DNA of 32,000 nucleotides, from positions 2,520,001 through 2,552,000 of the forward strand of contig NZ_CP034549.1 of assembly GCF_003966335.1 (NCBI RefSeq), in the 5' to 3' direction. Positions 1,985 to 28,100 of this stretch are shown one piece after another. Numbering within the stretch: the stretch's first letter is position 1; every line of letters starts with the position of its first letter. The stretch comes from Nonlabens ponticola. GTDB taxonomy: Bacteria; Bacteroidota; Bacteroidia; Flavobacteriales; Flavobacteriaceae. The notes beneath the pieces were generated by a model. It saw only the letters and a list, made by a program, of their open reading frames with translations, did no database searches and was not told the origin of the DNA. The translations under genes were made by a program, and so were the position numbers.

Positions 1985-3949
1985 TTACCACTTCATTTTC
2001 TGCAACCTAACTGCATTTAAAATAGCAAGCAAGGCAACACCTACGTCTGCAAAAACGGCTTCCCACATTGTAGCAAGTCCACCGGCTCCTAAAATGAGAA
2101 CTATAATTTTTACGCCAAAGGCTAGAACAATATTTTGCCAAACAATACTTCTGGTAGAACGTCCTATTTTTATGGAGCGCGCAATTTTTGATGGTTGGTC
2201 ATTTTGAATGATAACATCTGCGGTCTCAATAGCGACGTCACTTCCTAAACCACCCATTGCCATTCCTACATCACTTGTTGCCAAAACTGGTGCATCGTTG
2301 ATACCATCGCCTATAAAAGCGACTGTTGTATCTGGTTGTGCTTTGAGTTTTTCTACTTCGTTAAGTTTATCTTCTGGCAACAAACCACCTTTTGCCCAAT
2401 CAATACCTAATTCTTTGGCTACTTGTTGGGTAATGGAATCTTTATCGCCCGACAACATTATGATTTTAGAAATACCAGCCTCGCGAATTTGCTTAATCGC
2501 CTGATGGGCATCTTCCTTGAGCTCATCTGCAATGGTTACGTAACCTGCAAATTTGCCGTCTATTCCTACCATCACTATGGATTCAACAATAGTATCAGTT
2601 TCGGAAGGGACATCAATGCTGTTTGAAGTCATTAATGCTTTGTTTCCTACCAGCACGGTTTTTCCGTTTACGGTTCCTTTCAGTCCTTTTCCTGCGATTT
2701 CAGTCACGTCGGTTGCATCATAGTCGGCACCTTCGGCTTTGTATTCCATTATGGCTTTGGCGATGGGATGTGTAGATTGCTCTTCCATTGCCATTAGGTA
2801 TTTCATAAAGTCCGCTTTCGCGAAAGCGGAATCATTTACAACTTCCTTAATTTTAAATACTCCTTTAGTAACCGTACCAGTTTTATCCATTACCACGGTA
2901 TTTACTTTAGTCATTGCATCCAAAAATGATGCGCCTTTAAACAGGATTCCGTTGCGAGATGCAGCACCCAATCCACCAAAATATCCTAGCGGAATGGATA
3001 TTACCAAAGCACAAGGACAAGAGATAACTAGAAAGATTAAAGCTCGATATAGCCAGTCTCTGAACACATAATCATCTACAACGAAATACGGTAAAAAGGT
3101 CAGACCTATGGCTAAGAAAACTACAATAGGCGTGTAAACACGAGCAAATTTTCTAATAAACAACTCGGTTTTAGATTTACGAGCGGTGGCATTCTGCACC
3201 ATATCTAGAATACGTGCGATAGAGCTGTCCTTGAACTCCTTAGTAGTTTCTACCTCAATAACTCCATCAAGATTGATACTTCCTGCAAATACAGATGCTC
3301 CTTTCTGGACGGTATCCGGTTTACTTTCTCCGGTAAGAGCAGCGGTATTGAAAGAACCTTTATCTGAAAGTAATATTCCATCAAGAGGCACTTTTTCTCC
3401 TACGCGTACTTGAATTTTTTCGCCTATCTCAACCGTCTCAGGATTAACCGAAATGAAGTCGCCATTTCGATATACTAACGCCTCATTAGGTCGCACATCT
3501 AATAAAGCCTTGATATTTCCTTTTGCTCGGTTAACCGCTGCTTGTTGAAATAATTCGCCCACGGCATAAAACAACATTACAGCTACACCTTCTGGGTATT
3601 CTCCTATGGCAAATGCGCCCAAAGTTGCAATGGACATTAAAAAGAACTCCGTAAAGAAATCTCCATTCTTAATACTGTTCCAACCTTCTTTTATTACAGG
3701 GAAGCCAACAGGGATATAAGCTACGGTGTACCATACGATTCTTACCCATCCTTTAAAGAAGGGAAAAGTGTCAAAATAATCAACTGCAATACCTATTATA
3801 AGCATAACAAAACTGAAAATTGCAGGTAAATATGTTTTCAAATTAGACACTTCGTCTGGACTGCTGTGATTGTGACCGTCATCGTGACTGTGCGCGCCTT
3901 TATGTTCTTTTGGGTCTATGTCGCGTAAATTTATTTTTTTCTTTTTCAT
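1985..3949 (-). CDS. Heavy-metal P1B-2-type ATPase (Zn/Cd/Pb-type) with a His-rich N-terminus
   Basis: Motifs present: CPCALVISIP (the TM6 CPC motif), DKTGTVT (phosphorylation site), GDGINDAP, a TM7 N...K pattern (WQNIVLAFGVK) and a TM8 D-x-G pattern (FADVGVA). N-terminus reads HKGAHSHDDGHNHSS. ATG at 3949. Confidence 0.93.
   Translation of the reverse strand: MKKKKINLRDIDPKEHKGAHSHDDGHNHSSPDEVSNLKTYLPAIFSFVMLIIGIAVDYFDTFPFFKGWVRIVWYTVAYIPVGFPVIKEGWNSIKNGDFFTEFFLMSIATLGAFAIGEYPEGVAVMLFYAVGELFQQAAVNRAKGNIKALLDVRPNEALVYRNGDFISVNPETVEIGEKIQVRVGEKVPLDGILLSDKGSFNTAALTGESKPDTVQKGASVFAGSINLDGVIEVETTKEFKDSSIARILDMVQNATARKSKTELFIRKFARVYTPIVVFLAIGLTFLPYFVVDDYVFRDWLYRALIFLVISCPCALVISIPLGYFGGLGAASRNGILFKGASFLDAMTKVNTVVMDKTGTVTKGVFKIKEVVNDSAFAKADFMKYLMAMEEQSTHPIAKAIMEYKAEGADYDATDVTEIAGKGLKGTVNGKTVLVGNKALMTSNSIDVPSETDTIVESIVMVGIDGKFAGYVTIADELKEDAHQAIKQIREAGISKIIMLSGDKDSITQQVAKELGIDWAKGGLLPEDKLNEVEKLKAQPDTTVAFIGDGINDAPVLATSDVGMAMGGLGSDVAIETADVIIQNDQPSKIARSIKIGRSTRSIVWQNIVLAFGVKIIVLILGAGGLATMWEAVFADVGVALLAILNAVRLQKMKW
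2811..2830. repeat. Iterated palindrome copy 1 (20-bp perfect: TCCGCTTTCGCGAAAGCGGA)
   Basis: Read directly. It is its own reverse complement and lies inside the ATPase CDS, encoding S-A-F-A-K-A-D. Confidence 0.97.
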
Positions 3950-4306
3950 CTATTTTGATATCCAAATTTTTGCTTGTTCTTTATCTTTTAAATCGAAGTA
4001 TTTTACTTCCGAGCTTGTGAAGAAATCGGTTGCTTTTGCTGCCCATTCTTGCCATTTTTTATTTCCAACGAATGCTAATTTGCCGTAATCCTTGATATGG
4101 GCTACATCAGTCTTGATGTCTTCCCAAAATCCTTTAATAGTATAACCTTCAAAATCTTCCATTTCAAAATAAAAGTCCACTTTGCGACCTTTGTCGATGA
4201 TTCGATGTATTTGTTTGTGAATGGTCTTTAAATTTTCTTCGTTCAATTTGCCTGAGAGCCTTGCTGCAATCAAGTTCTCTTTATTCGTATCTATAGACTG
4301 TATCAT
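3950..4306 (-). CDS. STAS/SpoIIAA-like (DUF3478-type) small protein
   Basis: 118 aa. The pattern ...DFEGYTIKGFWEDIK...DYGKLAFVGNKKWQEW...VKYF...A..W matches the SpoIIAA-like family as I recall it. Its stop codon abuts the ATPase start, with no gap. Confidence 0.65.
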   Translation of the reverse strand: MIQSIDTNKENLIAARLSGKLNEENLKTIHKQIHRIIDKGRKVDFYFEMEDFEGYTIKGFWEDIKTDVAHIKDYGKLAFVGNKKWQEWAAKATDFFTSSEVKYFDLKDKEQAKIWISK

Positions 4307-4346
4307 AACTTCTTATTTTTAAGTGTTCAAAGTACAAGTTTAAACC

Positions 4347-4363
4347 GTGCAACGGAAGTGCAA
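4347..4363 (-). promoter_or_regulatory. Direct repeat TTGCAC-N5-TTGCAC (minus-strand reading); candidate operator overlapping a -33 region
   Basis: The plus strand reads GTGCAAcggaaGTGCAA. The site lies in the 57-nt gap between the Fur-like stop and the STAS start. It is 12 nt upstream of a near-consensus -7 box (minus strand TACTTTG, 4328-4334). The same motif occurs at 11557-11573. Confidence 0.45.
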
Positions 4364-4780
4364 TTATCGTCCACTACATTTTTCGCATATTCCTTTAAGT
4401 ACCAAGTTGGCATCTTCGGCCACGTACCCATCAGGCAAATTGATATGTGGTATTTTATGCTCTGTCAGACATACGGTCTCATCGCAATTATGGCAATGAA
4501 AATGCAAGTGTAAATCTTGTTCTAATTCGCAATTACATCCAGGTTCACATAAAGCATACTTGGTAATGCCTGTGCCGTCTTCTATGTAATGTACGATTCC
4601 TTTTTCTTCAAAAGTTTTTATGGTTCTGTAAAGCGTTGTGCGTTCCGCTTTCGCGAAAGCGGACTCAATATCCGTTAGTGCTACCGCAACTTCCTTTTCA
4701 GCCAAATATTTATAAATCAAAATGCGCATCGCTGTAGGACGCACTTGATGATTCTCTAATGTTTTTTCTATTTCGGTCAT
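4364..4780 (-). CDS. Fur-family (Zur-like) metalloregulator
   Basis: The winged-helix segment RPTAMRILIYKYL...TTLYRTIKTFEEKGIV is followed by a Cys/His-rich C-terminus (HFHCHNCDETVCL ... GICEKC). Start is taken at ATG 4780, because the longer ORF to 4948 overlaps the upstream CDF gene. Confidence 0.85.
   Translation of the reverse strand: MTEIEKTLENHQVRPTAMRILIYKYLAEKEVAVALTDIESAFAKAERTTLYRTIKTFEEKGIVHYIEDGTGITKYALCEPGCNCELEQDLHLHFHCHNCDETVCLTEHKIPHINLPDGYVAEDANLVLKGICEKCSGR
4644..4663. repeat. Iterated palindrome copy 2 (20-bp perfect, identical to copy 1)
   Basis: Read directly. It lies inside the Fur-like CDS, encoding E-S-A-F-A-K-A-E. Confidence 0.97.
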
Positions 4781-4782
4781 TG

Positions 4783-5415: not shown

Positions 5416-5420
5416 ATCTC

Positions 5421-6647: not shown

Positions 6648-6651
6648 CTTT

Positions 6652-9600
6652 TTAGTTTTGGAAATATTGTAGTTCAAACAAGGCTTTTAAATAATTATCG
6701 AGTGCATCTAGCGCATCCATTTCAGTCTGGATGGCATCCCTGATGATTTGTGTGAATGCCGCATAGTCCAGCGCTCCTTCTTTATATGCCAGCAACGCAC
6801 CCTTTCGCTGGTCTATGGCAAGCGGCAGCGCTTCGGTTTTATAGAAAAACCAAGTGTCCCGCCATCGCACATAATTTTGCATCGCTTGTGTATATTGAGA
6901 TTGTAACTCACGCTGTTTATAGGCTGCATCGGTTTCTGCAATCTGTGTATCCAGTTTTGCAGCTTTTGCGCGGCTGCGGTCTGGGCCAGAAAACAGCGGA
7001 ACGGTAATACCCACTTGATAGGTGTAGAAACCGCTATCGCCATTTACTCGTTGCAGACCACCTTGCAGATTGAACTTGGGCAATAGATTTACCCTTGCTG
7101 CATCATAGCTTGCCTGTGCTTCGTCTATACGCTTTCGCGAAAGCGATAATTCGGGATGATCATTCAATATTTCAACTGTCTCTGAAATCGAAATTTCATC
7201 AGCTTCCAATTCATCAGTAACGGTGTACATCGTATCTGGTGTCAACCATAGGTTGAGTTTTTGAAGAGCGATCAAATAGTCTGTTTCTGCCTGTTGAAAT
7301 TTATTATTGACCCGCAAAGCTTGATTGCGCGCAGCATCATATTCCAGCCTTGAAATGGCTTCCACTTCATAATTGAGTTCTACAGATTGTGCAAACTGAT
7401 TGTAAATACTGTCCAATTCTCGGTACAAGAGGAACTTCTTTTTTGCCTGAAAACCTTCTGACCAGGCTTTTTTAACTTCCCGTTCTACCAGGATTTTAGA
7501 AAGGTCAAATGCCGTTTGTGCCAACTCGATCCGTTGTTGTTGTAAACGTTCCTTGGCACCTATTCCCAGTAGATCAATATTCTGCTGTCCGATGCCTATC
7601 AAGGTATAAATGCCCTGACCATTGGCTACTTCCTCACCACCAGTAAATACCTGTGTATTTCCGAAATCATAAGCATTGCCTGTGAGTGCATTCTGTCTTT
7701 CAATTTCGAGTTGGCTCGTTTTAAGTACAGGGTAATTCTCTTTGGCAATTTCAACCGCTCGTGATAGTGTGATGGGTATGATACTGTCCTGAACAATACT
7801 ATCCTGCAAAGGTGCTTGTGATTGTTTCGCTTTTTCTTCGACTGCTCTCTGGGCAGATGCCCAAGAGGTACCACCTAACATAAAACCAAGTATCAAAATT
7901 GTAGTCAACGCTTGCGTATTAAACGAACCAATCTTTTTCTGGTCTTTGCGCTCGCGTCTCTTTTCTATAAACGTATAGAGCACGGGAAGAACGACCAACG
8001 TGAGTAGCGTCGCTGTAAGCATACCACCGATAACCACTGTAGCTAGTGGTTGCTGCACCTCTGCACCAGCAGATGTGGAAAACGCCATAGGTAAAAAGCC
8101 AAAGATATCTGTAGTAGCCGTGAGCATAATGGGACGAATACGTTCTTTAGTCCCTTTAAATATTCTATCCTTTATACTTACGACACCTTCTTCTTTTAAA
8201 GAATTGAATCGGTTAATAAGTACCAGCCCGTTGAGAACTGCGACACCGAATAGCACAATAAATCCTACACCCGCCGAAATACTAAAAGGCATATCTCTCA
8301 ACCATAAGGCAAACACACCACCGATGGCCGCCAAGGGTATCGCGATGTAAATCATTAAAGATTGTGAAAAGGATTTTAGAGCAAAGTACAGCAGTATGAA
8401 TATTAAAAACAGAGCGATAGGCACAACGATTATCAAACGATCCTTTGCACTTTGCAGATTCTCAAATTCGCCACCATAGGTAATATAATAGCCCGATGGC
8501 AGATCCAGTTCTTCATCTAATCTTTTCTGAATGTCTTTTACTACAGATTCCACATCCCTTCCTCGAGCATTTACACCTACATAGGTTCTTCTATACGTAT
8601 TATCACGTGAGATTTGCATAGGTCCAGGCACGTATTCAATCTCGGCTATTTCGATAATGGGCACCTGATTTCCATCCTTAAGATCGATATACATATTGCG
8701 CAGGTCATCAATACTTTTTCTATGGCTTTCATCAAATCGTACCACGAGGTCAAATCGTTTCTCGCCCTCAAAAATGACACCAGCCGTACCACCTGCAAAT
8801 GCAGTACTTATGTAATCATTGACTTTTTGAATATCCAGTCCATATTGCGCCATTTTATCTCGCCTAAATTTTACGGTCATCTGTGGTAATCCAGCTGTAC
8901 GTTCTGCACTCACATCGCCAGCACCAGGAACAGTCTGTATAATAGCTGCCATTTCCTGAACCTTTTTTGACAATACCTCTAAATCTTCGCCATAAAGCTT
9001 TACCGCAATGTCTTCTCTCACACCTTCTAAAAGCTCGTTAAACCGCAGCTCTACAGGTTGAGTAAATACTAAATTCACACCCACGAGTTCTTCATTCAAT
9101 TTATCTCTAATGGCATCTATCAAACCTTCTTTAGTAGAGGCGGTTGTCCAGTCATCCATATCCTTATTAAGGATGATGTACATATCTGCAATGTCCATAG
9201 GCATAGGATCTGTAGGAATATCTGCTACACCTATACGCGCTGTGACTGTTTTAATTTCAGGGAAATTATCTAATAGAATGTTTTCTATTTTTTTGGAAAC
9301 TTCAATGGATTCTGACAGCGAACTTCCTGGTCTTATGAGGGCCTGCATTGCTAAATCTCCTTCATCGAGCTGCGGCACAAATTCTCCACCCATATTAGAA
9401 AAGATAAAACCTGCGATGACAAGTAAAACTGCCGCGGCTGATAGAACGATTAGTTTTAGCTTTAGTGCTCCCTCTAACAATGGCATATATGCACTATGAA
9501 CAGCACCTATTATTTTATCACTTAATTTTTCGAGCCAGCACTCAAACCTACTGAACCAGTTTTTGGTGTTTTGTACTGGTTTCATAAAAAGCGCAGACAT

Positions 9601-11097
9601 CATAGGCACATAAGTAAGACAAAGAATAATGGCACCTATCATTGCAAACCCAAAAGTGTATGCCATAGGTTTGAACATTTTACCTTCTACACCTGTAAGA
9701 AAAAGTATGGGTGTAAAAACGATGAGAATGATGATTTGTCCAAAAAAAGCAGAACCCATCATTGTGCTTCCCGCTTCATAGGCTACTTTATCCATTAGGT
9801 CTTGATTGAATTTTAACTTGCCAGACCTAATTCGTTTTTGGATCTCATACACCGTTCCTTCTATAATAATCACTGCACCATCTATGATGATTCCAAAATC
9901 AATAGCTCCCAAACTCATTAAGTTTGCCCATACATTAAACTGCTTCATCAGGATAAAGGCAAAAAGTAAAGACAGTGGTATGGTCGTGGCTGTTATGATT
10001 CCGCCTCTTAAACTACCCAGCAATAAAACAAGGGCAAAAATCACAATCAAGGCACCTTCTAGTAAATTGGTTTTAACCGTATCTGTAGTTCGCGCAATTA
10101 GCTCGCTACGATCAATTATTGGGACAATGCTAAGTCCTTCTGGCAGGGATTTTTCAATTTCTGCCATACGATTCTTCACATTTTGAATGACTGCATTAGG
10201 ATTAGAACCCTTGAGCATCATTATAATACCACCAACAGCTTCCTTACCGTCCTGTGTAAATGCGCCATAACGCACTTGATTCCCAAAATGGACACGCGTT
10301 GCCACATCTCCAATAGTTATAGGAATATTACCTTCATTAGTAATCGAGATATTCTTAATGTCCTCCAAAGAGCGAATTAGACCTTCGCCTCTTATGAAAT
10401 TTGACATTTTATTTTTTTCTATATAGGCGCCACCAGTATTGACATTGTTCATAGCAAGAGACTCATAAACTTGTGAAATGCTGATGCCCATACTGTTTAA
10501 CTTTTCTGGATCTAGAGCAACCTCGTATTGTTTAATACTACCGCCATAAGAGTTAACTTCTACCACACCTTCCAGCAAAGTAAGTTGTCTTTTGATAACC
10601 CAATCCTGCACGGTGCGCAGTTCCATAGGCGAATACTTGGTTTCAAAACCTTCTTCTGGTTTTATGGTGTATTCATAAATTTGACCTAAACCTGTGGAAA
10701 TAGGACCCATAGACGGACTCCCAAATTTTTCAGGAATGGATTCGCCCAATTCATTAAGTTTTTCCCCTACCAGCTGTCGAGGAAGATAAGTCTCCATATC
10801 GTCTTCAAAAACGATGGTTACTACAGAGAGTCCAAAACGTGAGATAGATCGTATTTCGGTAACGCCTGGCAAATTACCCATAGATAATTCTACTGGATAG
10901 GTTACAAACTGCTCGATATCTTCCGTTCCCAGATTCGGCGATTGTGTGAGGACCTGTACCTGGTTATTGGTAATATCTGGCACGGATCCAAGATTTACTG
11001 TTGCCATCGACCAGATACCGACTCCTATAAGAGTTAAGGTAAAAAAGCCAATAATAAATTTATTATTGATTGAAAAATCAATGATTTTATTAATCAT
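6652..11097 (-). CDS. czcA: CzcA-family heavy-metal RND pump fused in frame to a TolC/CzcC-like outer-membrane-factor domain
   Basis: 1481-aa uninterrupted ORF. The first ~1040 aa are typical CzcA/CusA (12-TM layout; GAIDFGIIIDGAVIIIE; ATVVIGGMLTATLLTLVVLPVLY). Next comes RERKDQKK plus a hydrophobic stretch ending WASA-Q. The remaining ~430 aa are coiled-coil-rich TolC-like sequence. Confidence 0.9.
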   Translation of the reverse strand: MINKIIDFSINNKFIIGFFTLTLIGVGIWSMATVNLGSVPDITNNQVQVLTQSPNLGTEDIEQFVTYPVELSMGNLPGVTEIRSISRFGLSVVTIVFEDDMETYLPRQLVGEKLNELGESIPEKFGSPSMGPISTGLGQIYEYTIKPEEGFETKYSPMELRTVQDWVIKRQLTLLEGVVEVNSYGGSIKQYEVALDPEKLNSMGISISQVYESLAMNNVNTGGAYIEKNKMSNFIRGEGLIRSLEDIKNISITNEGNIPITIGDVATRVHFGNQVRYGAFTQDGKEAVGGIIMMLKGSNPNAVIQNVKNRMAEIEKSLPEGLSIVPIIDRSELIARTTDTVKTNLLEGALIVIFALVLLLGSLRGGIITATTIPLSLLFAFILMKQFNVWANLMSLGAIDFGIIIDGAVIIIEGTVYEIQKRIRSGKLKFNQDLMDKVAYEAGSTMMGSAFFGQIIILIVFTPILFLTGVEGKMFKPMAYTFGFAMIGAIILCLTYVPMMSALFMKPVQNTKNWFSRFECWLEKLSDKIIGAVHSAYMPLLEGALKLKLIVLSAAAVLLVIAGFIFSNMGGEFVPQLDEGDLAMQALIRPGSSLSESIEVSKKIENILLDNFPEIKTVTARIGVADIPTDPMPMDIADMYIILNKDMDDWTTASTKEGLIDAIRDKLNEELVGVNLVFTQPVELRFNELLEGVREDIAVKLYGEDLEVLSKKVQEMAAIIQTVPGAGDVSAERTAGLPQMTVKFRRDKMAQYGLDIQKVNDYISTAFAGGTAGVIFEGEKRFDLVVRFDESHRKSIDDLRNMYIDLKDGNQVPIIEIAEIEYVPGPMQISRDNTYRRTYVGVNARGRDVESVVKDIQKRLDEELDLPSGYYITYGGEFENLQSAKDRLIIVVPIALFLIFILLYFALKSFSQSLMIYIAIPLAAIGGVFALWLRDMPFSISAGVGFIVLFGVAVLNGLVLINRFNSLKEEGVVSIKDRIFKGTKERIRPIMLTATTDIFGFLPMAFSTSAGAEVQQPLATVVIGGMLTATLLTLVVLPVLYTFIEKRRERKDQKKIGSFNTQALTTILILGFMLGGTSWASAQRAVEEKAKQSQAPLQDSIVQDSIIPITLSRAVEIAKENYPVLKTSQLEIERQNALTGNAYDFGNTQVFTGGEEVANGQGIYTLIGIGQQNIDLLGIGAKERLQQQRIELAQTAFDLSKILVEREVKKAWSEGFQAKKKFLLYRELDSIYNQFAQSVELNYEVEAISRLEYDAARNQALRVNNKFQQAETDYLIALQKLNLWLTPDTMYTVTDELEADEISISETVEILNDHPELSLSRKRIDEAQASYDAARVNLLPKFNLQGGLQRVNGDSGFYTYQVGITVPLFSGPDRSRAKAAKLDTQIAETDAAYKQRELQSQYTQAMQNYVRWRDTWFFYKTEALPLAIDQRKGALLAYKEGALDYAAFTQIIRDAIQTEMDALDALDNYLKALFELQYFQN
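7130..7145. repeat. Iterated palindrome copy 3 (16-bp perfect CGCTTTCGCGAAAGCG)
   Basis: Read directly. It lies inside the TolC-like part of the fusion, encoding L-S-R-K-R (third reading frame of the palindrome). Confidence 0.97.
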
Positions 11098-11134: not shown

Positions 11135-11150
11135 CGCTTTCGCAAAAGCG
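11135..11150. repeat. Iterated palindrome, degenerate copy (CGCTTTCGCaAAAGCG, one mismatch at 11144)
   Basis: Read directly. This is the only copy in non-coding DNA, in the 118-nt gap between the small Cys-rich gene and czcA. Confidence 0.85.
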
Positions 11151-11205: not shown

Positions 11206-11215
11206 AAAAACTGAG

Positions 11216-11587: not shown

Positions 11588-13192
11588 TTATTTACGAATA
11601 AATTTAGATGGCTCTGAAAAATCTTTTACTATATCTAGAATCTGATTTATAGGTTCTGGGACACTATCGATATTTATACGTTGGGCAATGGTTCGTGCAA
11701 AGAGTACTTTATTATAAGTCGCTTTTTTCTTTTGATATAAAATTCTACTGATATTTGACAGGAAGTCGTTATTACGGTCAAAATCTGTAATCAAAATCTT
11801 AGGTTCCTCTGGATATAAATAGTTTAAAATTTCCACAGAATACTTAATATCAAATAAGTCTTCAAATGTTCCATTTTCTATAAAGATCATTCTATATTTA
11901 TTCTGTTCATTCTGTATGACGCGATTAATATCATCTCTTTCTTTAGTTGCATCGGAATCTAAAAAGCACACCATTTTTCGTTTAGGGTATTTGCTTCGGA
12001 AATTAAAAAAGTCTTCTTTCAATTTTTGCTTTGACTTTGAATTATAGACTTGTATCTCATTATGTGATAATACGAACCGTTTTCTGAAAGCTAATATTGG
12101 AATAGCAACCTCTTCGCTTTCCCCTTCAACTAAAATGATAACTTTTGGATTATTAACAATATTGAGGTTTGGTAAAAAGTTTCCAAATCTATCTGCCATT
12201 GATTTTTTAAAATCTTCAAAAAACTCTTTAAAGTAAACTAAACCTATTTTTTCAGCTATGGCTGTATTTTCTAGTAACAGCTTATATTGAAGTAATTCTT
12301 CTGGCAAAATAATAGTTTGTTTTTCACCACAACAAGGACAAATCATATCATCTTCAAGCTCATCTTTTCTGGAATGCGCTTTTACTCTGATATTTTTAAA
12401 CTCTTCTGCAAATTGTTTAAGTTCAGGATTCGCAGAAAACCCTTTCAAACCGTATTTTTTAAATACTTCGTGATCTATTTGGAAATACGAGTAGTGAAGA
12501 GCTTCACTCATACCTATTTTGGGCATTTCCACTTCTGCAATGGTTGTGAACCCTACACCTAATTCTTTATGCTCTTTATTTATTTTTTCAACATAACGTC
12601 TATAAAAAAGAGTTAATTCCTGTAATGGTGGAAAATTCATTAATCTAAAAAGTAGCTCTAATTTTTCTTTGTTAGTTGACGGTAGCGTAGATTGACTCAA
12701 TCTTTTTTCTAAGTGGCCATCGAGATTCATATTTTTTAAGCCTAAATCTTCAACAACCTTAGAAAAATTATGTTCTATGTCATTATCATCAAGTTTAGCA
12801 AGATCCATATGGTACTTTAATTCAACGTCCTCAAAATGCTCTTTTGTAAGTTTACAGATTGTTAGAGTATATGGTGTTGCTTCTATAATCCAATTGAATT
12901 CATAATCAATTCCTGGCAAGTACTTTTCATAAAGAATCTCAAGAGTTGGTTTCCAAATATTCTTAAATATGAAAAACTTGTCTAAAGCCACTAAAACTTC
13001 ATCTGCATTTTGATTTTCCTCTTCACCACCTTTATTAACATTAACGAGTAATCTAATGACATTGTTTAAAATTGTATCGTGTCCAAAGACAGCAATTCTA
13101 TTTAAAGAACCTTTGATGATTCCCATATAACCACCTTCTACGATTTTTCTCCAATCGTTATCTCTATTCTCAGTTTCAACTTCTTTACCCAT
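11588..13192 (-). CDS. Hypothetical protein with a C-terminal OLD-type TOPRIM nuclease-like domain and no recognisable ATPase
   Basis: The TOPRIM Glu motif VIILVEGESEE is at about 12106-12145, and the DxD motif CFLDSDATKE is at about 11945-11975. The ~340-aa N-terminal region has no Walker A motif. There is a single CPCCGEK motif. Start is ATG 13192 (or GTG 13195), overlapping the upstream stop as TGATG. The gene is markedly AT-rich. Confidence 0.6.
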   Translation of the reverse strand: MGKEVETENRDNDWRKIVEGGYMGIIKGSLNRIAVFGHDTILNNVIRLLVNVNKGGEEENQNADEVLVALDKFFIFKNIWKPTLEILYEKYLPGIDYEFNWIIEATPYTLTICKLTKEHFEDVELKYHMDLAKLDDNDIEHNFSKVVEDLGLKNMNLDGHLEKRLSQSTLPSTNKEKLELLFRLMNFPPLQELTLFYRRYVEKINKEHKELGVGFTTIAEVEMPKIGMSEALHYSYFQIDHEVFKKYGLKGFSANPELKQFAEEFKNIRVKAHSRKDELEDDMICPCCGEKQTIILPEELLQYKLLLENTAIAEKIGLVYFKEFFEDFKKSMADRFGNFLPNLNIVNNPKVIILVEGESEEVAIPILAFRKRFVLSHNEIQVYNSKSKQKLKEDFFNFRSKYPKRKMVCFLDSDATKERDDINRVIQNEQNKYRMIFIENGTFEDLFDIKYSVEILNYLYPEEPKILITDFDRNNDFLSNISRILYQKKKATYNKVLFARTIAQRINIDSVPEPINQILDIVKDFSEPSKFIRK

Positions 13193-15450: not shown

Positions 15451-17973
15451 TTAATCAATTGATTTTGTTCTGAGTCTAAGTGCGTTTGCTATTACAGAAA
15501 CCGAACTAAAACTCATAGCCAGTGCTGCAATCATAGGCGATAATAGAATTCCGAAAAATGGAAATAATACTCCTGCCGCAATCGGTACACCCAGCGTGTT
15601 GTATATCATAGCAAAAAATAGATTTTGCTTGATGTTCCGCATTACTTTGTGGCTTAGGTTTCTTGCTTTTACGATACCGTGCAAATCGCCCTTTACCAAG
15701 GTTATCATCGCACTTTCAATAGCCACATCTGTTCCTGTACCCATTGCGATACCCACATCACTTTTAGCCAGAGCAGGTGCGTCGTTTATACCATCGCCTG
15801 CCATCGCTACTACTTTACCTTGCTCTTGTAGTTTCTTTACCTCGTCCAGTTTGTTTTCAGGTAACATTCCTGCTTTGAAGTCGGCGAGATTGAGTTCGCT
15901 CGCCACAGCTTGGGCGGTGTCGTGATTATCTCCTGTGAGCATTATTACTTCAATGCCTTTGTCCTGTAATTCTTTGATTGCCTTAGCACTCGTTTCTTTT
16001 ATTTTATCGCCTATGACCACGTAGCCTGAAACTTCGCCATCAATGGATAAGTAGGAAACCGTTTTTCCCTGTTTCTGAAAGGATTGTGCTTCGGTTTCCA
16101 TTTCAGGTGATAGCTTGGCATTTGCATTCTCCATCATTTTGGCATTTCCCAAATCGAGCTTCTTGCCATCAACTGTTCCTTCTACGCCTTTTCCGGTTAC
16201 TGCGCTAAAGTTTTCGGTTTTTGATATTTCGACCTTCTGCTCCTTTCCATATTTCACGGTGGCTTCGGCAAGTGGATGCTCGCTGGAACTGTTTAGGGAT
16301 GCGATAAGATGTAGAATTTCGCTTTCGCGAAAGCGAGATTCATCAAACGACCCAATTTTCTCAACCGTTGGTTTCCCTTCCGTAATGGTTCCTGTTTTAT
16401 CAACGATAAGGGTGTCCACTTTGTCCATTTTCTCTAAGGCTTCGGCATTCTTAATTAGGACACCATTTTGGGCACCTTTACCAACACCTACCATAACGGA
16501 CATCGGTGTTGCCAATCCCAATGCACAAGGACAGGCTATAATCAATACGGCAATGGCATTTACAAGAGCAAATACATAAGCTGGTTCTGGTCCCCAAATC
16601 GCCCAGACAATGAAAGTGATGACCGCAATGATAACCACGACAGGTACGAAATAGCCTGAAACCGTATCTGCCAATTTCTGAATAGGGGCACGACTGCGAC
16701 TGGCATCGTTTACCATATGTATGATTTGGGAAAGCAAGGTGTCGCTACCTACTTTTTCGGCCTCCATCAAAAAAGATTGATTCCCGTTAATGGTACCGCT
16801 ACTTACCTTATCATCAACAGATTTGTTAACTGGGATAGGCTCTCCCGAAATCATTGATTCATCCACCGTAGTTTCTCCTTCGGTAATTTTGCCATCCACA
16901 GGAATCTTATCTCCTGGCTTTACTCGTAGGATATCTCCTTTTTCAATCTGGTCGATGGAAACTTCTTCTTCGTTTCCATCCACTACGCGTACTGCTTTGT
17001 TAGGTGCAAGCTTTAATAATTCTTTCACTGCTGAATTGGTTTTACTATGTGCACGGGCTTCTAAAACTTGACCCATCAATACCAGCGTTAGAATAACAGT
17101 AGCGGCTTCAAAATACACGTGAACCGCACCGGATTCTGTTTTAAATTGTTCCGGAAAAAAGTCTGGAAACAACATCCCAAAAACACTAAAGAGCCAAGCC
17201 ACGCCCGCACCTATACCGATTAGTGTGAACATATTTAGATTCCACGTTTTAATACTTCGATAAGCACGTTCAAAGAACATCCAAGTGGCATAGAACACCA
17301 CAGGAATCGACAAGCCAAATTGAATCCAGTTCCACCATTTCTGTTCCATTACATCGTATAGCGGATTGTTTGGAATCATCTCACTCATAGCGATTAGGAA
17401 AATAGGAAGCGTAAAGGCTACTGCTATCCAGAATTTCTTAATCAGCTTATTATATGTTTTTTCTTCGGCAGATAAATCAGGTTCCATCGGCACTAAATCC
17501 ATTCCGCAAATAGGACAGCTTCCCGGTTCGTCCTTTACGATTTCAGGATGCATTGGGCAGGTCCACTGTTCAGTAGTAGTTGTAGCTGACAAATTTTGCT
17601 CTTCGACCAAATCCATTCCACAAACAGGACAATCGCCTGGTTTGTCATAGGTTTTATCGCCCTCGCAGTGCATTGGGCAATAAAACGTTCCCGTTCCCTT
17701 GCCTTCTGGTTTCGCTTTTTTCGGTTTTGCTGAAGCGGAATCATCATCGTGATAATGTTCGCCTGATTTGTGGATGCTATACGAACCACCATCTTGCTTT
17801 AGAGCTTTTTGAAATGTTTCGATAGAAATATGAGATTCCATTTCGATGGTCGCCTCTTCTTTCTCTAAATTAACCGAAGCGTTAGTCACACCTTCCACTT
17901 TAGAAAGTGTTTGCTCAACGTGATTGCGACAACCGTTGCAGGTCATTCCTTGTATGTGGTATGTGTGTTTCAT
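15451..17973 (-). CDS. copA: Copper-translocating P1B-1 ATPase with one HMA domain and two HMBD modules
   Basis: Motifs present: GMTCNGC, FYCPMH...CPVCGMDLV, WTCPMHPE...CPICGMDLV, CPCALGLATP, DKTGTIT, GDGINDAP, YNTLGVP and MSFSS. Start is taken at ATG 17973, because the ORF-track start at 18027 overlaps the permease. Confidence 0.95.
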   Translation of the reverse strand: MKHTYHIQGMTCNGCRNHVEQTLSKVEGVTNASVNLEKEEATIEMESHISIETFQKALKQDGGSYSIHKSGEHYHDDDSASAKPKKAKPEGKGTGTFYCPMHCEGDKTYDKPGDCPVCGMDLVEEQNLSATTTTEQWTCPMHPEIVKDEPGSCPICGMDLVPMEPDLSAEEKTYNKLIKKFWIAVAFTLPIFLIAMSEMIPNNPLYDVMEQKWWNWIQFGLSIPVVFYATWMFFERAYRSIKTWNLNMFTLIGIGAGVAWLFSVFGMLFPDFFPEQFKTESGAVHVYFEAATVILTLVLMGQVLEARAHSKTNSAVKELLKLAPNKAVRVVDGNEEEVSIDQIEKGDILRVKPGDKIPVDGKITEGETTVDESMISGEPIPVNKSVDDKVSSGTINGNQSFLMEAEKVGSDTLLSQIIHMVNDASRSRAPIQKLADTVSGYFVPVVVIIAVITFIVWAIWGPEPAYVFALVNAIAVLIIACPCALGLATPMSVMVGVGKGAQNGVLIKNAEALEKMDKVDTLIVDKTGTITEGKPTVEKIGSFDESRFRESEILHLIASLNSSSEHPLAEATVKYGKEQKVEISKTENFSAVTGKGVEGTVDGKKLDLGNAKMMENANAKLSPEMETEAQSFQKQGKTVSYLSIDGEVSGYVVIGDKIKETSAKAIKELQDKGIEVIMLTGDNHDTAQAVASELNLADFKAGMLPENKLDEVKKLQEQGKVVAMAGDGINDAPALAKSDVGIAMGTGTDVAIESAMITLVKGDLHGIVKARNLSHKVMRNIKQNLFFAMIYNTLGVPIAAGVLFPFFGILLSPMIAALAMSFSSVSVIANALRLRTKSID
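16319..16336. repeat. Iterated palindrome copy 5 (18-bp perfect TCGCTTTCGCGAAAGCGA)
   Basis: Read directly. It lies inside copA, encoding S-R-F-R-E-S-E (second reading frame of the palindrome). Confidence 0.97.
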
Positions 17974-17975
17974 TT

Positions 17976-19211
17976 TTATCGAATTATGAATTTTATAATC
18001 AAACCTCCTGCAAGCCATACATAACAAATGAATGCTGCATATTTCAAAATCTTTTCAAGCAAGGGGCTTTTGGGCGCCATCTCGCTCATAGAATGCTCAA
18101 CGTCTTTTCGCTTGAAGAACCCCAGATAGATTAAGTAACCCGATATGGCCAAGAAGGCTATATTCAAAAAGAAAGTGTAGTTTATTTTGAAATGGTCCTT
18201 ATCTTGAATATTGACTTGCGAAGGGTCTGGCATTAAATCAAGAAAATTAAAACCATAATGAAGTATTAATGATGCCGATATAAGAGCCGTAAAGAGTAAG
18301 AACAAAATGAAAAGTGACATTTTCCAGCCATAATATTTGGCATTTATACGTAATACGGGAAACACAACTAAATCACTGAAAATAAATGCCATTACGCCAG
18401 CAAAACTTACACCCTTGCCGAAGAGTAAGGCGGCCAGCGGAATATTGCCCATACTTCCTATAAAAGTTAAAAATGCTGCGATAGGCCCCACTATGATATG
18501 TTCAAGAATTTCTAAGAAGGTAAATTCATTAGTACCCTTGCCGCTATTGATGAATAAGGTTTCAAAGAATGCATCTGGGACGAATGCCGCCGTAATCCCT
18601 GCAATGGTGAATCCAACAGTTACGTCCTTCCAAACCATTGACCATTCCATTTTGTATTTTCTAGCAACTTTAGCCCAGTTTGTTTCTTTTTTTATCTCTG
18701 ATTTCCAATCGTCATCTTGACCTTTGCTCTCGTCATTTTCGTTGCCATCATCTTTGAGATTCTTGCGTGCCTTTTCTATTAATTTTTTAGGATTTATTAT
18801 TCGAATCAGTAACCAACTGACCAATATCAACAGAATACCACCTAAGTATTCGCCTACTACAAATTGCCAGCCCAAAAAGATTGAAATAAGAATGCCCAAT
18901 TCGATAACCAAGTTGGTGGAAGCCAATAGAAATGCAATCGATGAGACGAAACTGGCACCTTTCTTAAAGATTGATTTCGTACCAGCTAGCGCCGAGAAGC
19001 TGCAAGAACTACTGATAAAACCAAAGAAGGTACCCAGCAATATGCTCTTGCCTTCATTCTTACCCATTGCTTCTTGCATTTTTTGCCTAGTTACAAAAAC
19101 TTGAATCATACTGCTGATTATATAACCAACTACAAAAGCCCATAGAGCTGTCCAGAAAAATCCTACTGAGGTAAAGGCTGCTTCTGCCCAGGATTTTAAA
19201 AAATCATTCAT
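17976..19211 (-). CDS. Predicted permease (COG0701/ArsP-like two-module membrane protein)
   Basis: 411 aa with multiple TM helices in two halves, separated by an acidic loop (DDGNENDESKGQDDDW). Family assignment is from memory of similar permeases in metal clusters. Confidence 0.6.
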   Translation of the reverse strand: MNDFLKSWAEAAFTSVGFFWTALWAFVVGYIISSMIQVFVTRQKMQEAMGKNEGKSILLGTFFGFISSSCSFSALAGTKSIFKKGASFVSSIAFLLASTNLVIELGILISIFLGWQFVVGEYLGGILLILVSWLLIRIINPKKLIEKARKNLKDDGNENDESKGQDDDWKSEIKKETNWAKVARKYKMEWSMVWKDVTVGFTIAGITAAFVPDAFFETLFINSGKGTNEFTFLEILEHIIVGPIAAFLTFIGSMGNIPLAALLFGKGVSFAGVMAFIFSDLVVFPVLRINAKYYGWKMSLFILFLLFTALISASLILHYGFNFLDLMPDPSQVNIQDKDHFKINYTFFLNIAFLAISGYLIYLGFFKRKDVEHSMSEMAPKSPLLEKILKYAAFICYVWLAGGLIIKFIIR

Positions 19212-20865: not shown

Positions 20866-20897
20866 TTTGTATTGTATTTAGGTTAATAATTATTTTT

Positions 20898-23255: not shown

Positions 23256-23332
23256 AGTTTTCTTAACTTTTTTAATTCGTAAAGTTAGAAATGTTAAAAT
23301 CGTTTGATTTACGATATTTTGGATGATGTTTA

Positions 23333-23893: not shown

Positions 23894-23894
23894 T

Positions 23895-25112
23895 TTAGTT
23901 AGTCAAATAATTAATGATGGCTTGTTGAGTTAAATACGTCCGAACCGATTCTATCTGATTCATCTGAAATCTTAATTGCAGTTCCTGTATATCGAGCACA
24001 TCGTTAAAATCTATCGTTCCCGTTTCATAATTCTTGATTAGAATTTGCTCGGCATCTTTGGCCTGCTTTAAATTCTTACTCTGAGTATTAAATTTAATTC
24101 GGGCCTGATTGCGTTGGGATATCGCTTTCGCGAAAGCGGATTCCAAAACATTCAATCGTTGCTCTTTTTGAGTTTCGATTTCCTGTTGGCGTAGCTCATT
24201 TTGCCTTGAAATGGACTTGTACCTATTGTTAAAAATGGGAATGGAAACCGAAACCATAGGCATCAATACATCTTTTCCATTGTCTATAGGGTTCATATCG
24301 GTACGCTCGCTTACCGGTAGATAATCCACACCAAAGCCAACCATAGGTAGGCTCTCGCGTTGATTGAGCAATTCTGATTGTGCTACGGATTCGTACAATT
24401 TATCGTACTTGAGCAGTTCAGGATTGAGCGATAGTGCGTCTGTTCCGTATATGGGGTCATCCTCTGGAATTTCCATTATTGCAACTATTTCAACCGTGCT
24501 ATTTTCATCCCGATTTAGAAGATTATTGAAGGTTGTTTGTTCTGCGCCAAATTCCTCTTCCAATACCTCTCTTTGCTGCTGTAATTCATTTTGACGAATC
24601 TGTAATCGCAATACATCTACGGCAGATGCCTTGCCCACTTCTACCGAAGTCAGTGCAAGACGCTCATAAGTTTTTAATAGTTGGATGTTCTCGTCGAGTA
24701 CCTTTTGCTTTGCTCTTGTTTCATACAACCTGTAATAGGATTGCGCTACTGATAGCGCCAATTTTCGTTTGGCGATTGTGATTTCCACGTATTCAGCTTC
24801 GGCCATTGAAGTCGCATAATTTTCACGTGCGGTAACGGTACCAAACCAGGGCAACATCTGTTTTACGCCTATCCGTGCTCGTTGTGCGCCCACCCTTGTT
24901 TCTGGCTCACTTACAAAATAGCCTGCGCTTACTTCAGTATTGGGTAACCAGTTTGCTTCATTGACCTTTTCTTCGGCAATATTGTAGCGCAATTCAAAAG
25001 CCTGAATCTCTGGATTATTATTTTCTGCTTCATCAATATAGGATTGTAATTGTTGCGCTTTCGCGAAAGCGGAAATAAACAAAAGACAGATTATGATTTT
25101 TATATTTTTCAT
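23895..25112 (-). CDS. TolC-family outer-membrane efflux protein
   Basis: 405 aa with a signal peptide and two repeated coiled-coil/beta halves typical of outer-membrane factors. Its start overlaps the cusA stop (ATGA). Confidence 0.85.
   Translation of the reverse strand: MKNIKIIICLLFISAFAKAQQLQSYIDEAENNNPEIQAFELRYNIAEEKVNEANWLPNTEVSAGYFVSEPETRVGAQRARIGVKQMLPWFGTVTARENYATSMAEAEYVEITIAKRKLALSVAQSYYRLYETRAKQKVLDENIQLLKTYERLALTSVEVGKASAVDVLRLQIRQNELQQQREVLEEEFGAEQTTFNNLLNRDENSTVEIVAIMEIPEDDPIYGTDALSLNPELLKYDKLYESVAQSELLNQRESLPMVGFGVDYLPVSERTDMNPIDNGKDVLMPMVSVSIPIFNNRYKSISRQNELRQQEIETQKEQRLNVLESAFAKAISQRNQARIKFNTQSKNLKQAKDAEQILIKNYETGTIDFNDVLDIQELQLRFQMNQIESVRTYLTQQAIINYLTN
24123..24138. repeat. 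Iterated palindrome copy 6 (16-bp perfect)
   Basis: Read directly. It lies inside the TolC CDS, encoding S-A-F-A-K-A-I. Confidence 0.97.
25056..25071. repeat. Iterated palindrome copy 7 (16-bp perfect)
   Basis: Read directly. It lies in the TolC signal-peptide and cleavage region, encoding S-A-F-A-K-A-Q. Confidence 0.97.
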
Positions 25113-28100
25113 TTGTTTGCTCTTTTAAGTTGGTATTCTTTTTTCCAGCTATATAGAACTGGTAAAAGGAAATAAGATGTGACGTCGATTATCATTCCGC
25201 CAAAAATGGGGATGGCCATCGGTATCATAATGTCGCTTCCTTTTCCTGTAGATGTGAGTACTGGCAACAATGCCAAAACTGTGGTCACGGTGGTCATCAA
25301 GCAAGGACGTATTCTTTTTCCTGCGGCTTCTAATGTGGCGAGACGTATGCCTTTTTTACTGTCTGGCTCGTTGCTTTTAAATGATTGGTCTAAATAGGTT
25401 GCCATTACCACACCATCATCAGTCGCAATACCGAAAAGGGCAATAAAACCGACCCACACGGCCACACTTAAATTGATGGTTTTCATATTGAACAAGTCCC
25501 GTAGGTTCTCGCCAAAAAAGCTGAAATTGAAAAACCAATCTTGACCGTATAACCAAATCATTATAAAGCCACCTGCAAAGGCTACGGCGATTGCTGTAAA
25601 AACCATAAGCGACGTAGAAACCGACTTGAACTGGAAATACAAAATCAAGAAAATGACCAGCAAACAAAGTGGCACAACCACCGATAACGTTTTTTCTGCC
25701 CGTAATTGATTTTCGTACGTTCCTGTAAATCGGTAACTGATGCCTTGTGGCACGACCAAATCGCCATTATCGATTTTCTGTTGAATGAGTGCTTGTGCAT
25801 TTTCCACCACATCGACTTCGGCAAAGTCATCAAGCTTATCAAACAGCACGTAGCCAATCAAGAAGGTGTCTTCACTTTTAATGACCTGTGGACCTTGCTC
25901 ATATCGTATATCTACCAATTCGCCCAAAGGCACCGGACTTCCAGTTGATACAGGAACATAGATACTTTTTAAGTCTTCTGGATTTGCACGCAATTCCCGT
26001 GGATAGCGTACACGCACACCATAGCGCTCACGGCCTTCTACGGTTTGGGTAAGTGGCATACCGCCCACAGCAACCTGAAGCACTTCCTGAACATACATAA
26101 TAGAGATTCCGTAGCGTGCCAGCTGGTCTCGTTTAATATCAATCAGCAAATAAGGTTTACCCACAATTCGGTCTGCAAAAACGGCTTGTTCTTTTACACC
26201 TTCGGCTTGCTTTAAAATATCTTCCAATTGCAGTCCAAAGTTTTCTATGGTTTTTAAATCTGGCCCTTTCACTTTTATTCCCATAGGTGCACGCATTCCT
26301 GTTTGTAGCATCACGAGTCGCGTCTCGATGGGTTGTAGCTTGGGCGCAGAAGTCACGCCTGGGAATTTGGTCACTTTTACGATTTCATTCCAGATATCAT
26401 CGGGACTGCTTATTTCTGGTCGCCAGTTTCGATAATATTCCCCATCGTTATCTTTAATCAAATCATTTCGTGTTGCACTTGTTTTGAGTTGTGACGCTTC
26501 ATAATTTGCATCATCATCGATTTCATTATTGGGGTTAATAATGAACTTGTCATTTTTCAGAACAAATAGACCATCATCGTTCACACGGTAGCGTTGTCTC
26601 TCGCCATTCTCATTTCGCATATATTCAGACTTATACTGAATGACATTTTCATACATCGAGAGTGGTGCAGGGTCGAGGGCAGATTCTGTCCTTCCTGCTT
26701 TTCCCACAACAGTTTCAATTTCAGGGATGCTTGCCACGGCCATATCCAGCTGTTGCAAGACACGCTTGTTCTCTTCGACACCAGCGTGTGGTAAGGATGT
26801 AGGCATTAATAAGAATGAACCTTCATTAAGTGCTGGCATAAATTCCTTCCCTGTGTTACGCATTATGACCACACCTAAAATCAGCACCGTGGTTGGAACA
26901 ATTAAAAACAGGTATCGGTTTTGCAGTGCCCAGCGTAAAATGCTGTCATAGTATCTTCGGAAAACTGTAAACACACCAAGCAGTCCAAAGCAGATAATCG
27001 CTACAAAAATCAAATTCATTAGAATGCTGCGGTCAAAGCCAAGTGGTCGCCAGTATTCGGCTAACAGCACGACGATAGCAATACAGGAAATGATGATATT
27101 TACTACATTTTGATTGATGTTGAGCCTGTAGCCAGCAATGGTATGGTTGTATTCCTTTTTCGCTTTAAGCGAAAAGAATAAACCACTACATCCAAAAGCT
27201 ATCAAAATCAACCCAAGCCAGTAACCAAATACAAGTGCAGTGATGCCGAGTGCGATTAAAAGACCATTCAAAAGCAGTTTAGATCGCTGGCGAACGTTTG
27301 TTTTTCTGAAAAGGAAAGCGGCAAATGGCGGTATTAAAAACAGCGCGATTACAAGCGATGCAGAAAGTGCCATTGTCTTTGTAAAAGCCAATGGTCTGAA
27401 GAGTTTCCCTTCGGCACCTATCATCGTAAACACAGGTAGGAAACTGATAATCGTCGTGAGCACAGCGGTTAAAATTGCCCCAGAGACTTCCGCAGTAGCG
27501 TTGTAGATGATTTCGTTTGTAGTGTATTCTATTCCGCTTTCGCGAAAGCGTAATTTTTTATCTTCCAGATGCCGAATCATATTTTCGGCGAGTATGACGC
27601 CCACGTCCACCATTGTACCGATAGCAATGGCAATTCCTGACAAGGCAACAATGTTAGCATCTACATTAAAGAGCTTCATTGTTATGAAAACCATTAAAAC
27701 GGCAACAGGCAACAAGCCAGAAATTAAAATGGATGCACGTAGGTTAAACACCATTACAATGATGACCAAAATAGTTATCAGGATTTCAAGTGTAAGGGCT
27801 TCATTGAGCGTGTGAAGTGTTTCCTGAATAAGTTGCGTGCGGTCGTAAAAGGGAACGATAGTTACTTGTGAAGTACGACCATCTGCCAAGGTTTTTGTGG
27901 GTAGTCCGGATGATAATTCGGCTATTTGATCTTTTACATTATTGATGACTTCCAATGGGTTAGCACCGTAACGGGCTACCACGACACCGCCTACCACTTC
28001 GGCACCTTCTTTATCCAAAATACCACGTCGCGTTTGTGGTCCCAGATGAACATTTGCAATGTCTTTGATTCGTATAGAAGTAAAATTTTCAGAAGCGACC

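Follow-up and report, generated by a model that had tools for sequence, protein, structure and literature searches.

Hyper-abundant palindromes have been studied almost solely in cyanobacteria, where the 8-bp word HIP1 (highly iterated palindrome 1, GCGATCGC) has been without an explanation for three decades. Robinson et al. are said to have reported in 1997 that HIP1 spreads by substitution. HIP1 is over-represented and conserved in a way that implies selection, with its function still open (PMC5861425); it enhances transformation and has a Chi-like effect (bioRxiv 10.1101/2024.09.10.611283), it correlates with the DNA-uptake machinery (bioRxiv 10.64898/2026.06.24.733823), and a methylation-linked repair model was set out for it (PMC4390886). 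Here we describe an independent case in another phylum, detected in 32,000 nucleotides of the Nonlabens ponticola genome (NZ_CP034549.1, positions 2,520,001 to 2,552,000; hereafter the window, with position 1 as its first letter). The element is the 16-bp palindrome CGCTTTCGCGAAAGCG, whose 14-mer core GCTTTCGCGAAAGC was used in searches. It is a clade-specific, genome-wide and hyper-abundant palindrome of the Dokdonia-Nonlabens clade, made by substitution, conserved and acting at the level of DNA, i.e., an object of the HIP1 kind.

Two further classes of words are relevant for comparison. Uptake signal sequences (USS) of Haemophilus and DNA uptake sequences (DUS) of Neisseria are asymmetric, 9–12 bp long and occur about once per kb, and uptake bias and competence have been demonstrated for them. 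They accumulate by point mutation and molecular drive, mostly in coding sequence and at places where the encoded peptide is tolerated, and the flanks of the Haemophilus USS are compositionally biased. Chi sites are asymmetric words of 5–8 nt, co-oriented with replication and over-represented just a few-fold, and we know of no local flank footprint around them. That motifs of the USS/DUS type accumulate to high density is stated in PMC7965970.

An unbiased k-mer count revealed a sole over-repeated family of 10- to 14-mers in the window, namely that of GCTTTCGCGAAAGC. Its exact copies start at 2814, 4647, 7131, 13520, 16321, 24124, 25057 and 27536, and a scan of the window found a single one-mismatch copy, GCTTTCGCAAAAGC, at 11136. 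A preliminary description of this DNA, made from the letters alone, had listed the same eight exact copies and one near-miss; its starts (2811, 4644, 7130 and so on) are those of the longer perfect palindromes, which measure 20 bp (2811, 4644), 18 bp (16319), 16 bp (7130, 24123, 25056, 27535) and 14 bp (13520). Its statement that chance cannot account for them agrees with our finding that none of 100 dinucleotide-preserving shuffles of the window contained an exact match. The eight copies are distributed over seven unrelated genes, all large open reading frames (ORFs) of the window being on the minus strand; the gene names proposed earlier were upheld by Pfam and by alignment of the ATPase to ZntA (4umv). 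All three reading frames are used, five copies being read as SAFAKA, two as RFRES and one as LSRKR, exactly as first described.

The word is not a peculiarity of this locus. A collection with one genome per species (GTDB), scanned in 8-kb tiles, yielded at least 120 stretches that carry it. Eighty-nine of those listed belong to low-GC Flavobacteriaceae, nearly all of them Dokdonia, Nonlabens or relatives including metagenome-assembled genomes (MAGs), with one to three copies per tile; among the matches listed, the sites of Dokdonia sp. R86516 are far apart on the chromosome, at 0.88, 1.38, 2.15 and 2.82 Mb. The remaining 31 listed are mostly from unrelated phyla, 29 of them with a single copy, in tiles of at least 45% GC; a few are Flavobacteriaceae MAGs of 45–47% GC with the C..G extension of the core. 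Carrier genes in the clade tiles are ordinary chromosomal ones, coding for FtsK, LolA, a photolyase-related protein, a GT2 glycosyltransferase and a metallo-beta-lactamase-fold protein. Density was estimated from four 20.5-kb Dokdonia loci centred on a NadR-like protein that had been picked for carrying one copy. With this central site excluded, the loci, 82 kb in all, contain 19 exact copies, a density of one per 4.3 kb, against a first-order Markov expectation of about 2e-4 in 82 kb (0.0017 copies per 669 kb). The density of the window (8 in 32 kb) is typical of the clade, and rough extrapolation gives several hundred copies per 3-Mb genome. Copies are thus neither confined to the window nor near their expected frequency, the two outcomes that the preliminary description had named as pointing to a local artefact; as with HIP-type palindromes, the lineage carries the word genome-wide in an excess of orders of magnitude.

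No indel was found at the palindrome at any site compared, and the copies differ from their orthologues by base substitution, in line with the earlier suggestion that substitution rather than insertion is at work. The Zn/Cd ATPase and ZntA align without gaps across the site, which in 120 homologues reads SAFAKA, SAFAEA, STFAEA, SSFTEA or ITFEEA, with the length unchanged in 119; a few homologues of the ITFEEA type lack one residue immediately upstream, and one protein (P0113) has an 8-residue insertion. The sole DNA gaps nearby are of 2–3 nt, beside the site at 16321 in two loci (L121 and L110). In the gene of the NadR-like protein the word encodes LSRK right after the Walker A motif, where outgroups have TLSEQLA or TLSRQLA of equal length. 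At another site (L246:14476) seven of the 14 bases differ from the orthologue, which might suggest a jump by several substitutions at once, but the peptide segment is variable among relatives anyway.

Among 148 sampled copies, 117 (79%) are located in long ORFs and 31 (21%) outside of them. The ORF copies are read as AFAKA in 62 cases, FRES in 28 and LSRK in 27, and the AFAKA reading relies on minor codons (GCG, 14% of Ala; TTC, 26% of Phe), so that conservation is not aimed at the peptide. The presence in all coding frames and in non-coding DNA, together with origin by substitution, is as described for HIP-type elements, and it bears out the view that the signal is on the DNA and not on the peptide. 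A glutamine follows 13 of the 62 AFAKA-frame copies, which would fit the A-x-A↓Q signal-peptidase context of Bacteroidetes. These data suggest that copies settle where the peptide is tolerated.

Once present, the word is strongly conserved. In aligned Dokdonia blocks of 66–73% nucleotide identity, eight of nine directed comparisons were exact, versus 133 of 8913 control 14-mers (1.5%), and copies of the window are exact in loci of just 70–84% identity; as in HIP-type systems, sites are conserved between genomes above the background. Beyond the one ascertaining copy per tile, the clade tiles contained 58 further exact copies, 13 with one mismatch and 14 with two. CpG transitions are the commonest single change, accounting for three of three in Olleya and four of 13 in native tiles (five of 13 counting the flanking CpG), with one each in L249 and the window. 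One-mismatch copies may be short-lived. In many two-mismatch relatives the inner TTTCGCGAAA and one of the outer halves are intact, e.g., xxxTTTCGCGAAAGCG, as at L246:5259, 6804 and 8770 and at L248:7290, 11327, 12283, 15852 and 17939; in the Dokdonia loci fetched with the NadR-like protein, nine two-mismatch copies stand against three with one mismatch.

Maintenance of the word appears to depend on the host, judging from the versions of the heavy-metal resistance island that fills the window. Nonlabens- or Dokdonia-type loci of this island have three to five exact copies, the Olleya one has two exact copies and three with a single CpG transition, and those of Zobellia and Aquimarina latercula have no exact copy, with versions carrying one to five mismatches. 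The word is found in phage DNA as well: a 12-kb stretch with portal, prohead-protease and capsid genes (L216:1-12060) contains three copies, one of them within the protease gene. Other viral contigs of IMG/VR with the word are L180:1-11283, L149, L163, L205, L213, L241 and L244; some viral contigs have two or three copies, the C..G extension and the flank bias described next.

The anatomy of the element deserves special attention. In 81% of copies the core is flanked by C and G, which defines the unit as the 16-mer CGCTTTCGCGAAAGCG; for 14-mers with the C..G extension a figure of 70% was obtained as well. A weaker outer extension, TTnC...GnAA, is apparent (T is favoured at −3 and −4 and A at the mirror positions), and a CC...GG extension exists in just 10% of copies. 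Where it does not form part of the full word, TCGCGA is about as frequent as expected (73 observed, 61 expected), and the signal is therefore the long word rather than its embedded 6-mer. About 300 flanks from the clade showed a further, compositional layer. As far as −19, the 5′ flank of each strand is poor in C (3–10%, baseline 19%) and it is rich in T and G (G+T 0.59–0.69 versus 0.51), T being frequent at −10 to −13 and G at −15 to −18; the 3′ flank of each strand is the mirror image, G-poor and A/C-rich. By about −30 the bias has faded. Each of the three codon positions and each of the three frames shows it, as do copies in non-coding DNA and in phages, and at third codon positions of the flanks it looks transition-like (C −0.10 with T +0.09; A −0.06 with G +0.07). 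One-mismatch copies share it; four-mismatch words and chance copies of the word from other genomes lack it. The unit is a 16-bp palindrome within a dyad-symmetric composition footprint of about 52 bp, a feature new in this analysis.

We considered and rejected two simple sources of this footprint. An artefact of signal peptides or of coding is incompatible with its uniformity across frames, non-coding sites and subsets with and without a following Q. A hairpin extended through the flanks is likewise not supported, as flank complementarity equals the expectation from composition and real flank partners fold no better than permuted ones (−11.61 versus −11.66 kcal/mol, p = 0.96). Apart from T(A/C)C at −3 to −1, no further sequence motif or promoter-like word was found in the flanks.

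Compared with described systems, the word sits in the neighbourhood of HIP1 and uptake sequences, where the preliminary description had rightly put it. With HIP1 it shares perfect symmetry, hyper-abundance in one lineage, presence in all coding frames and in non-coding DNA, and conservation at orthologous sites. It differs in specifying 16 bp instead of 8, in its frequency of about one per 4 kb (HIP1 may occur more than once per gene), and in belonging to Bacteroidota and not Cyanobacteria; no cognate methyltransferase is known for the Nonlabens/Dokdonia word, decay by CpG transitions being no more than a hint of one, and a strand-asymmetric footprint of about 52 bp was not found described for HIP1 in the portions of the reports cited above. 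Since neither word nor phylum is that of HIP1, the element is HIP-like and not HIP1. The likeness to USS and DUS is that of a lineage-specific, over-represented word accumulating in situ, which is what we observe here; the Nonlabens/Dokdonia word is, however, a perfect palindrome, and an uptake role would be argued from the analogy of evolutionary pattern. Chi is similar in frequency (one per few kb), intragenic position and origin by substitution, and the G/T-rich single strand on which RecA is loaded (RecBCD, AddAB) has its 3′ end at Chi, the same orientation as the flank skew seen here. In sequence the two are unlike, Chi being short, asymmetric and biased in orientation and our word a 16-bp palindrome.

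Systems based on mobile or structural palindromes agree less well. Repetitive extragenic palindromes (REP) and the bacterial interspersed mosaic elements (BIME) made of them are also short palindromic repeats with hundreds of copies per genome, but REPs are extragenic, imperfect with a conserved head, 20–40 nt long, often arranged as inverted clusters and tied to a RAYT gene; our palindrome is perfect, long ORFs contain 79% of its copies and a RAYT was not seen. Rickettsia palindromic elements (RPE) do occur in frame inside protein-coding genes, but as insertions of 100–150 bp that add residues and lengthen the host gene, as miniature inverted-repeat transposable elements (MITEs) would, whereas the Nonlabens/Dokdonia word adds none. 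The partition site parS and the binding sites of Noc (NBS) and SlmA (SBS) are perfect or near-perfect dyads of 12 to 16 bp, parS and NBS share a TTTC...GAAA core, and sites within genes are tolerated in the case of NBS and SBS. The parS-type likeness entertained earlier fails on sequence (TTTC-ACGT-GAAA in parS versus TTTC-GC-GAAA), half-site spacing and copy number: ParB-bound sites resembling tGTTNCACGTGAAACa are few and near the origin, here eight copies occur within 32 kb and others throughout the genome, and tens of parS, NBS or SBS per genome compare with an estimated several hundred.

Our preferred reading joins three elements, namely that the palindrome is HIP-like, that a dimeric factor reads it and that a host-specific force keeps it exact; taken jointly, we consider it about evenly balanced between right and wrong. 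A homodimeric, sequence-specific host factor would read the word as duplex DNA, which is suggested by the perfect dyad, the 16 informative bp and the bounded footprint of about 52 bp; the weak core hairpin and the lack of co-varying pairing between flanks would favour duplex over RNA or single-stranded DNA structure. This factor, or a repair or recombination step linked to it, might favour the exact word, so that near-miss alleles would be converted back or lost, and copies leaving the clade on the mobile island look to decay, mostly via CpG transitions. Both flanks may, more speculatively, be handled strand-specifically from the centre outwards, because the skew of the 5′ flank holds in every frame, in non-coding DNA and in phage copies. 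Its polarity could stem from a break in the centre followed by 5′-to-3′ resection, which leaves 3′-ended single strands that terminate at the dyad, from protection of the strand 5′ of the signal as at Chi, or from a bound complex that leaves one strand of each flank exposed. From general knowledge of DNA repair, it should be opposite to the polarity of G:T-type polymerase errors in a 3′ repair patch.

As to the purpose of such a system, a signal for recombination, repair or DNA uptake, resembling Chi or USS and as now proposed for HIP1, is, speculatively, the likeliest function, since the skew is what 3′-ended single strands ending at the palindrome would give. We nevertheless hold a function in recombination or uptake to be less likely than not. 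Its most explicit form, in which a dedicated dimeric machine of Bacteroidota recognises the palindrome and processes DNA there, the word being a two-way ‘self’ signal for recombination that resembles Chi or uptake words, we likewise hold to be doubtful. Such a machine would open or cut the DNA at the dyad and yield 3′-ended, G/T-rich single strands on both sides, and alleles with the exact word would gain transmission via biased gene conversion or preferential recombination.

Several points weigh against the preferred reading. Conservation alone cannot separate drive from ordinary selection, and conservation and the scarcity of one-mismatch copies would fit either conversion-type drive or selection. 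The flank skew could be a binding preference, its position-specific detail fitting a footprint as well as a mutational gradient. Palindrome-free alleles, at the few sites where they could be compared, already carry part of the bias (5.9 C/G per 38 nt, against 5.1 with the palindrome and a baseline of about 7.1), and a mutational origin needs flanks that are often single-stranded. The host contrast is based on one locus per genus, and the near-misses of Zobellia fit decayed copies and never-completed proto-sites alike. The density figure comes from loci that are partly syntenic and total 82 kb, and L125, L126 and L127 each have about 10 kb beyond the island in which no copy occurs. In 1.4 Mb of low-GC DNA, a rough motif search found no partner protein, methyltransferase or nuclease; the regular-expression scan for methyltransferases gave a single NPPY-motif match, which was taken as HemK/PrmC-like, unchecked. 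Natural competence with preference for own DNA is documented within Flavobacteriales for Riemerella only (PMC7965970).

One rival explanation regards the word as a neutral by-product of biased repair, a methylation-linked, very-short-patch-like ratchet as Elhai proposed for HIP1, which serves no function: a methyltransferase would mark TCGCGA or CGCG, and a mismatch-specific nickase would correct near-misses towards the methylated word. One-mismatch copies that are rarer than both exact and two-mismatch ones, CpG transitions as the commonest single change, accumulation in resident phage DNA and on the mobile island, and a footprint of about 20 nt per flank, the length of a Pol I repair patch, are all in its favour, and a model of this type was set out in PMC4390886. 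Yet 16 specified bp far exceed any known methyltransferase or Vsr site, a form directed by 6 bp is not visible given TCGCGA at expectation outside the word, the skew polarity would be wrong for G:T-type polymerase errors in a 3′ patch, and the 1.4-Mb scan showed no methyltransferase, which makes this explanation rather improbable in our view. Somewhat less probable again are binding sites of a chromosome-organising protein (Noc, SlmA, a MatP-like or domain-boundary factor), kept by ordinary selection with neither drive nor processing, the flanks being the extended contact or bending preference of the protein. The 16-bp perfect dyad with its footprint would suit a bound protein; the strong orthologous conservation is an argument made for HIP1 in PMC5861425. 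Noc and SlmA are established cases of tolerance for intragenic sites, but their sites number about 50–70 in model bacteria, several-fold below the several hundred estimated here; moreover, selection per site would be weak relative to coding constraints, and phage structural genes carry copies at host-like density.

Structure in single-stranded nucleic acid offers a different account of the symmetry: a REP-like element with a RAYT/HUH enzyme, or an mRNA structure element, would be palindromic since the same hairpin must form on whichever strand is read. Palindrome and flank pattern are self-complementary by construction, and symmetry alone would allow such a reading. The stem of 6–8 bp with a CGCG loop that the preliminary description had drawn does exist in the core; the weight that a stable fold would have lent it is missing, as the 16-mer as DNA has a folding energy of −4.3 kcal/mol, unexceptional against shuffles (z = −0.9), and in sequence context the hairpin is not always the minimum-energy fold. 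Flanks add no pairing, no Rfam family matches the word, REPs are extragenic and imperfect while 79% of our copies are in ORFs, and the A-rich 3′ flank argues against a terminator, altogether leaving this account with a small probability. The many identical copies within unrelated genes could also bring to mind an in-frame miniature mobile element of the RPE or MITE type, selection on the peptide, or an assembly or vector artefact. The first is contradicted by the constant length at every palindrome compared, the gaps of 2–3 nt at 16321 being no 16-bp insert, the second by three frames, non-coding copies and minor codons, and the third by the occurrence of the word in dozens of independent isolate and MAG assemblies; we regard this group as extremely improbable.

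Neither the 14-mer nor its core nor any such repeat in Dokdonia or Nonlabens was found described in the searchable literature, which omits most subscription journals; to that extent, and short of proof of novelty, this is the first HIP-like element documentable outside cyanobacteria. Besides confirming the initial observations, the present analysis adds the clade-wide spread, the 16-bp unit with its symmetric footprint of about 52 bp, and the nature of the window as a horizontally transferred island. A longer, unambiguous word, its host specificity, its footprint, and copies on an island and on phages that are gained or lost according to the host turn HIP-type elements into a tractable problem. 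The word is a near-perfect barcode of DNA long resident in the Dokdonia-Nonlabens clade, e.g., for the donor lineage of the island in Aquimarina, Olleya and Zobellia, and could help to assign marine phages to Dokdonia- or Nonlabens-type hosts. If the two-way signal proved true, the footprint would be the first trace, in the sequence itself, of the way a HIP-type element is processed, and the clade would provide an independent system for the 30-year-old HIP1 question.

The nine copies of the window span 2795–27568, each in a dyad-symmetric unit of about 52 bp (core and about 19 nt per side, e.g., 2795–2846 and 4628–4679). The first (2811–2830, core 2814–2827) is the 20-bp palindrome TCCGCTTTCGCGAAAGCGGA within the Zn/Cd P-type ATPase gene (1985–3949, minus), read as D-SAFAKA-D; homologues with SAFAEA, STFAEA or SSFTEA are of the same length here. 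The second (4644–4663, core 4647–4660), also of 20 bp, is read as E-SAFAKA-E in the Fur-family gene (4364–4780, minus), and its orthologues in L067, L122 and L121 differ by substitutions alone. The third is a 16-bp palindrome (7130–7145, core 7131–7144) in the outer membrane efflux protein (OEP) part of a gene for a resistance-nodulation-division (RND)-OEP fusion (6652–11097, minus), read as S-LSRKR and kept exact in L067, L124, L125, L126 and L127. The one-mismatch copy GCTTTCGCAAAAGC (11136–11149) is intergenic, 39 nt upstream of the start codon of the RND-OEP gene; its mismatch is a CpG transition, and the orthologous place has the exact word in L125, L126 and L127.

Copy four (13520–13533, 14 bp) is read as V-SAFAKA-T in the CusB-like gene (13192–14934, minus). 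Its 14-mer is exact in L124–L127 and has one mismatch in Olleya (L123); the base before the core on the coding strand is T in the window and C in L125–L127, where the 16-bp form is thus present. Copy five, an 18-bp palindrome (16319–16336, core 16321–16334), is read as S-RFRES-E in the CopA-like ATPase gene (15451–18027, minus) and is missing at the orthologous positions of L121 and L110, the two loci with the small gap beside the site. The OEP/TolC gene (23895–25112, minus) carries two 16-bp copies. One of them (24123–24138, core 24124–24137; E-SAFAKA-I) is exact in L110 and substituted away in L071 and L121, and the other (25056–25071, core 25057–25070), in codons 15–20, is exact in L110 and L071 despite nucleotide identities of 70–78%; the position of the latter and its reading, I-SAFAKA-QQ, would fit an A-x-A↓Q cleavage region of a signal peptide. 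The last copy (27535–27550, core 27536–27549; 16 bp) is read as L-RFRES-G in the CusA-like RND gene (25109–28894, minus), and Zobellia (L121) has a two-mismatch version of it.

The whole window is a horizontally shared Zn/Cd/Cu heavy-metal resistance island of Flavobacteriaceae. Apart from identities above 90% between its ATPase and proteins of Dokdonia, Aquimarina, Olleya, Zobellia, Maribacter and other genera, this is indicated by TraM- and DUF4138-type conjugative-transposon genes that adjoin the island in Zobellia laminariae and by the alleles compared (L121–L127, L067, L071 and L110), which are mosaics of identical and about 20%-divergent blocks. Such mosaics point to frequent homologous recombination among island variants. 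A local mutation burst at the ATPase site, where five of 12 residues differ between proteins that are 98% identical, was considered and rejected, as the difference falls within a 130-codon mosaic recombination block. For the Fur-family protein of the window no match was found in PDB.

The 1481-aa product of the ORF at 6652–11097 (minus) is a complete RND transporter of the AcrB/CzcA type with a C-terminal OEP/TolC domain; this fusion also exists in L123 and L125–L127. Between it and the CusB-like gene, an ORF of 535 aa (11588–13195, minus; 32% GC) lies inside a low-GC patch at about 11.2–13.2 kb that has no copy of the palindrome. Its product had a sub-threshold Pfam match to an OLD-like TOPRIM domain alone, and PADLOC and NCBIfam returned nothing. 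In other island versions no ORF was called in this interval, a DUF6660 gene alone being present between the CusB-like and RND genes, and the 535-aa ORF may be an inserted nuclease or defence gene. Three further minus-strand ORFs, at 421–1815, 29785–30516 and 30777–31937 (464, 243 and 386 aa), had no NCBIfam match, the 464-aa one having none in Pfam and PADLOC either; the neighbouring ORF at 29037–29465 encodes an HYC_CC_PP family protein.

Some hexamer palindromes are scarce in this clade. In 669 kb of low-GC Flavobacteriaceae tiles together with the window, GTCGAC, TTCGAA and GCATGC are strongly under-represented (observed/expected 0.17, 0.19 and 0.26), GGGCCC and CCCGGG are also low (0.30–0.34) and CpG is mildly depleted overall (0.83). 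The deficit of these hexamers looks like restriction-site avoidance in the clade.

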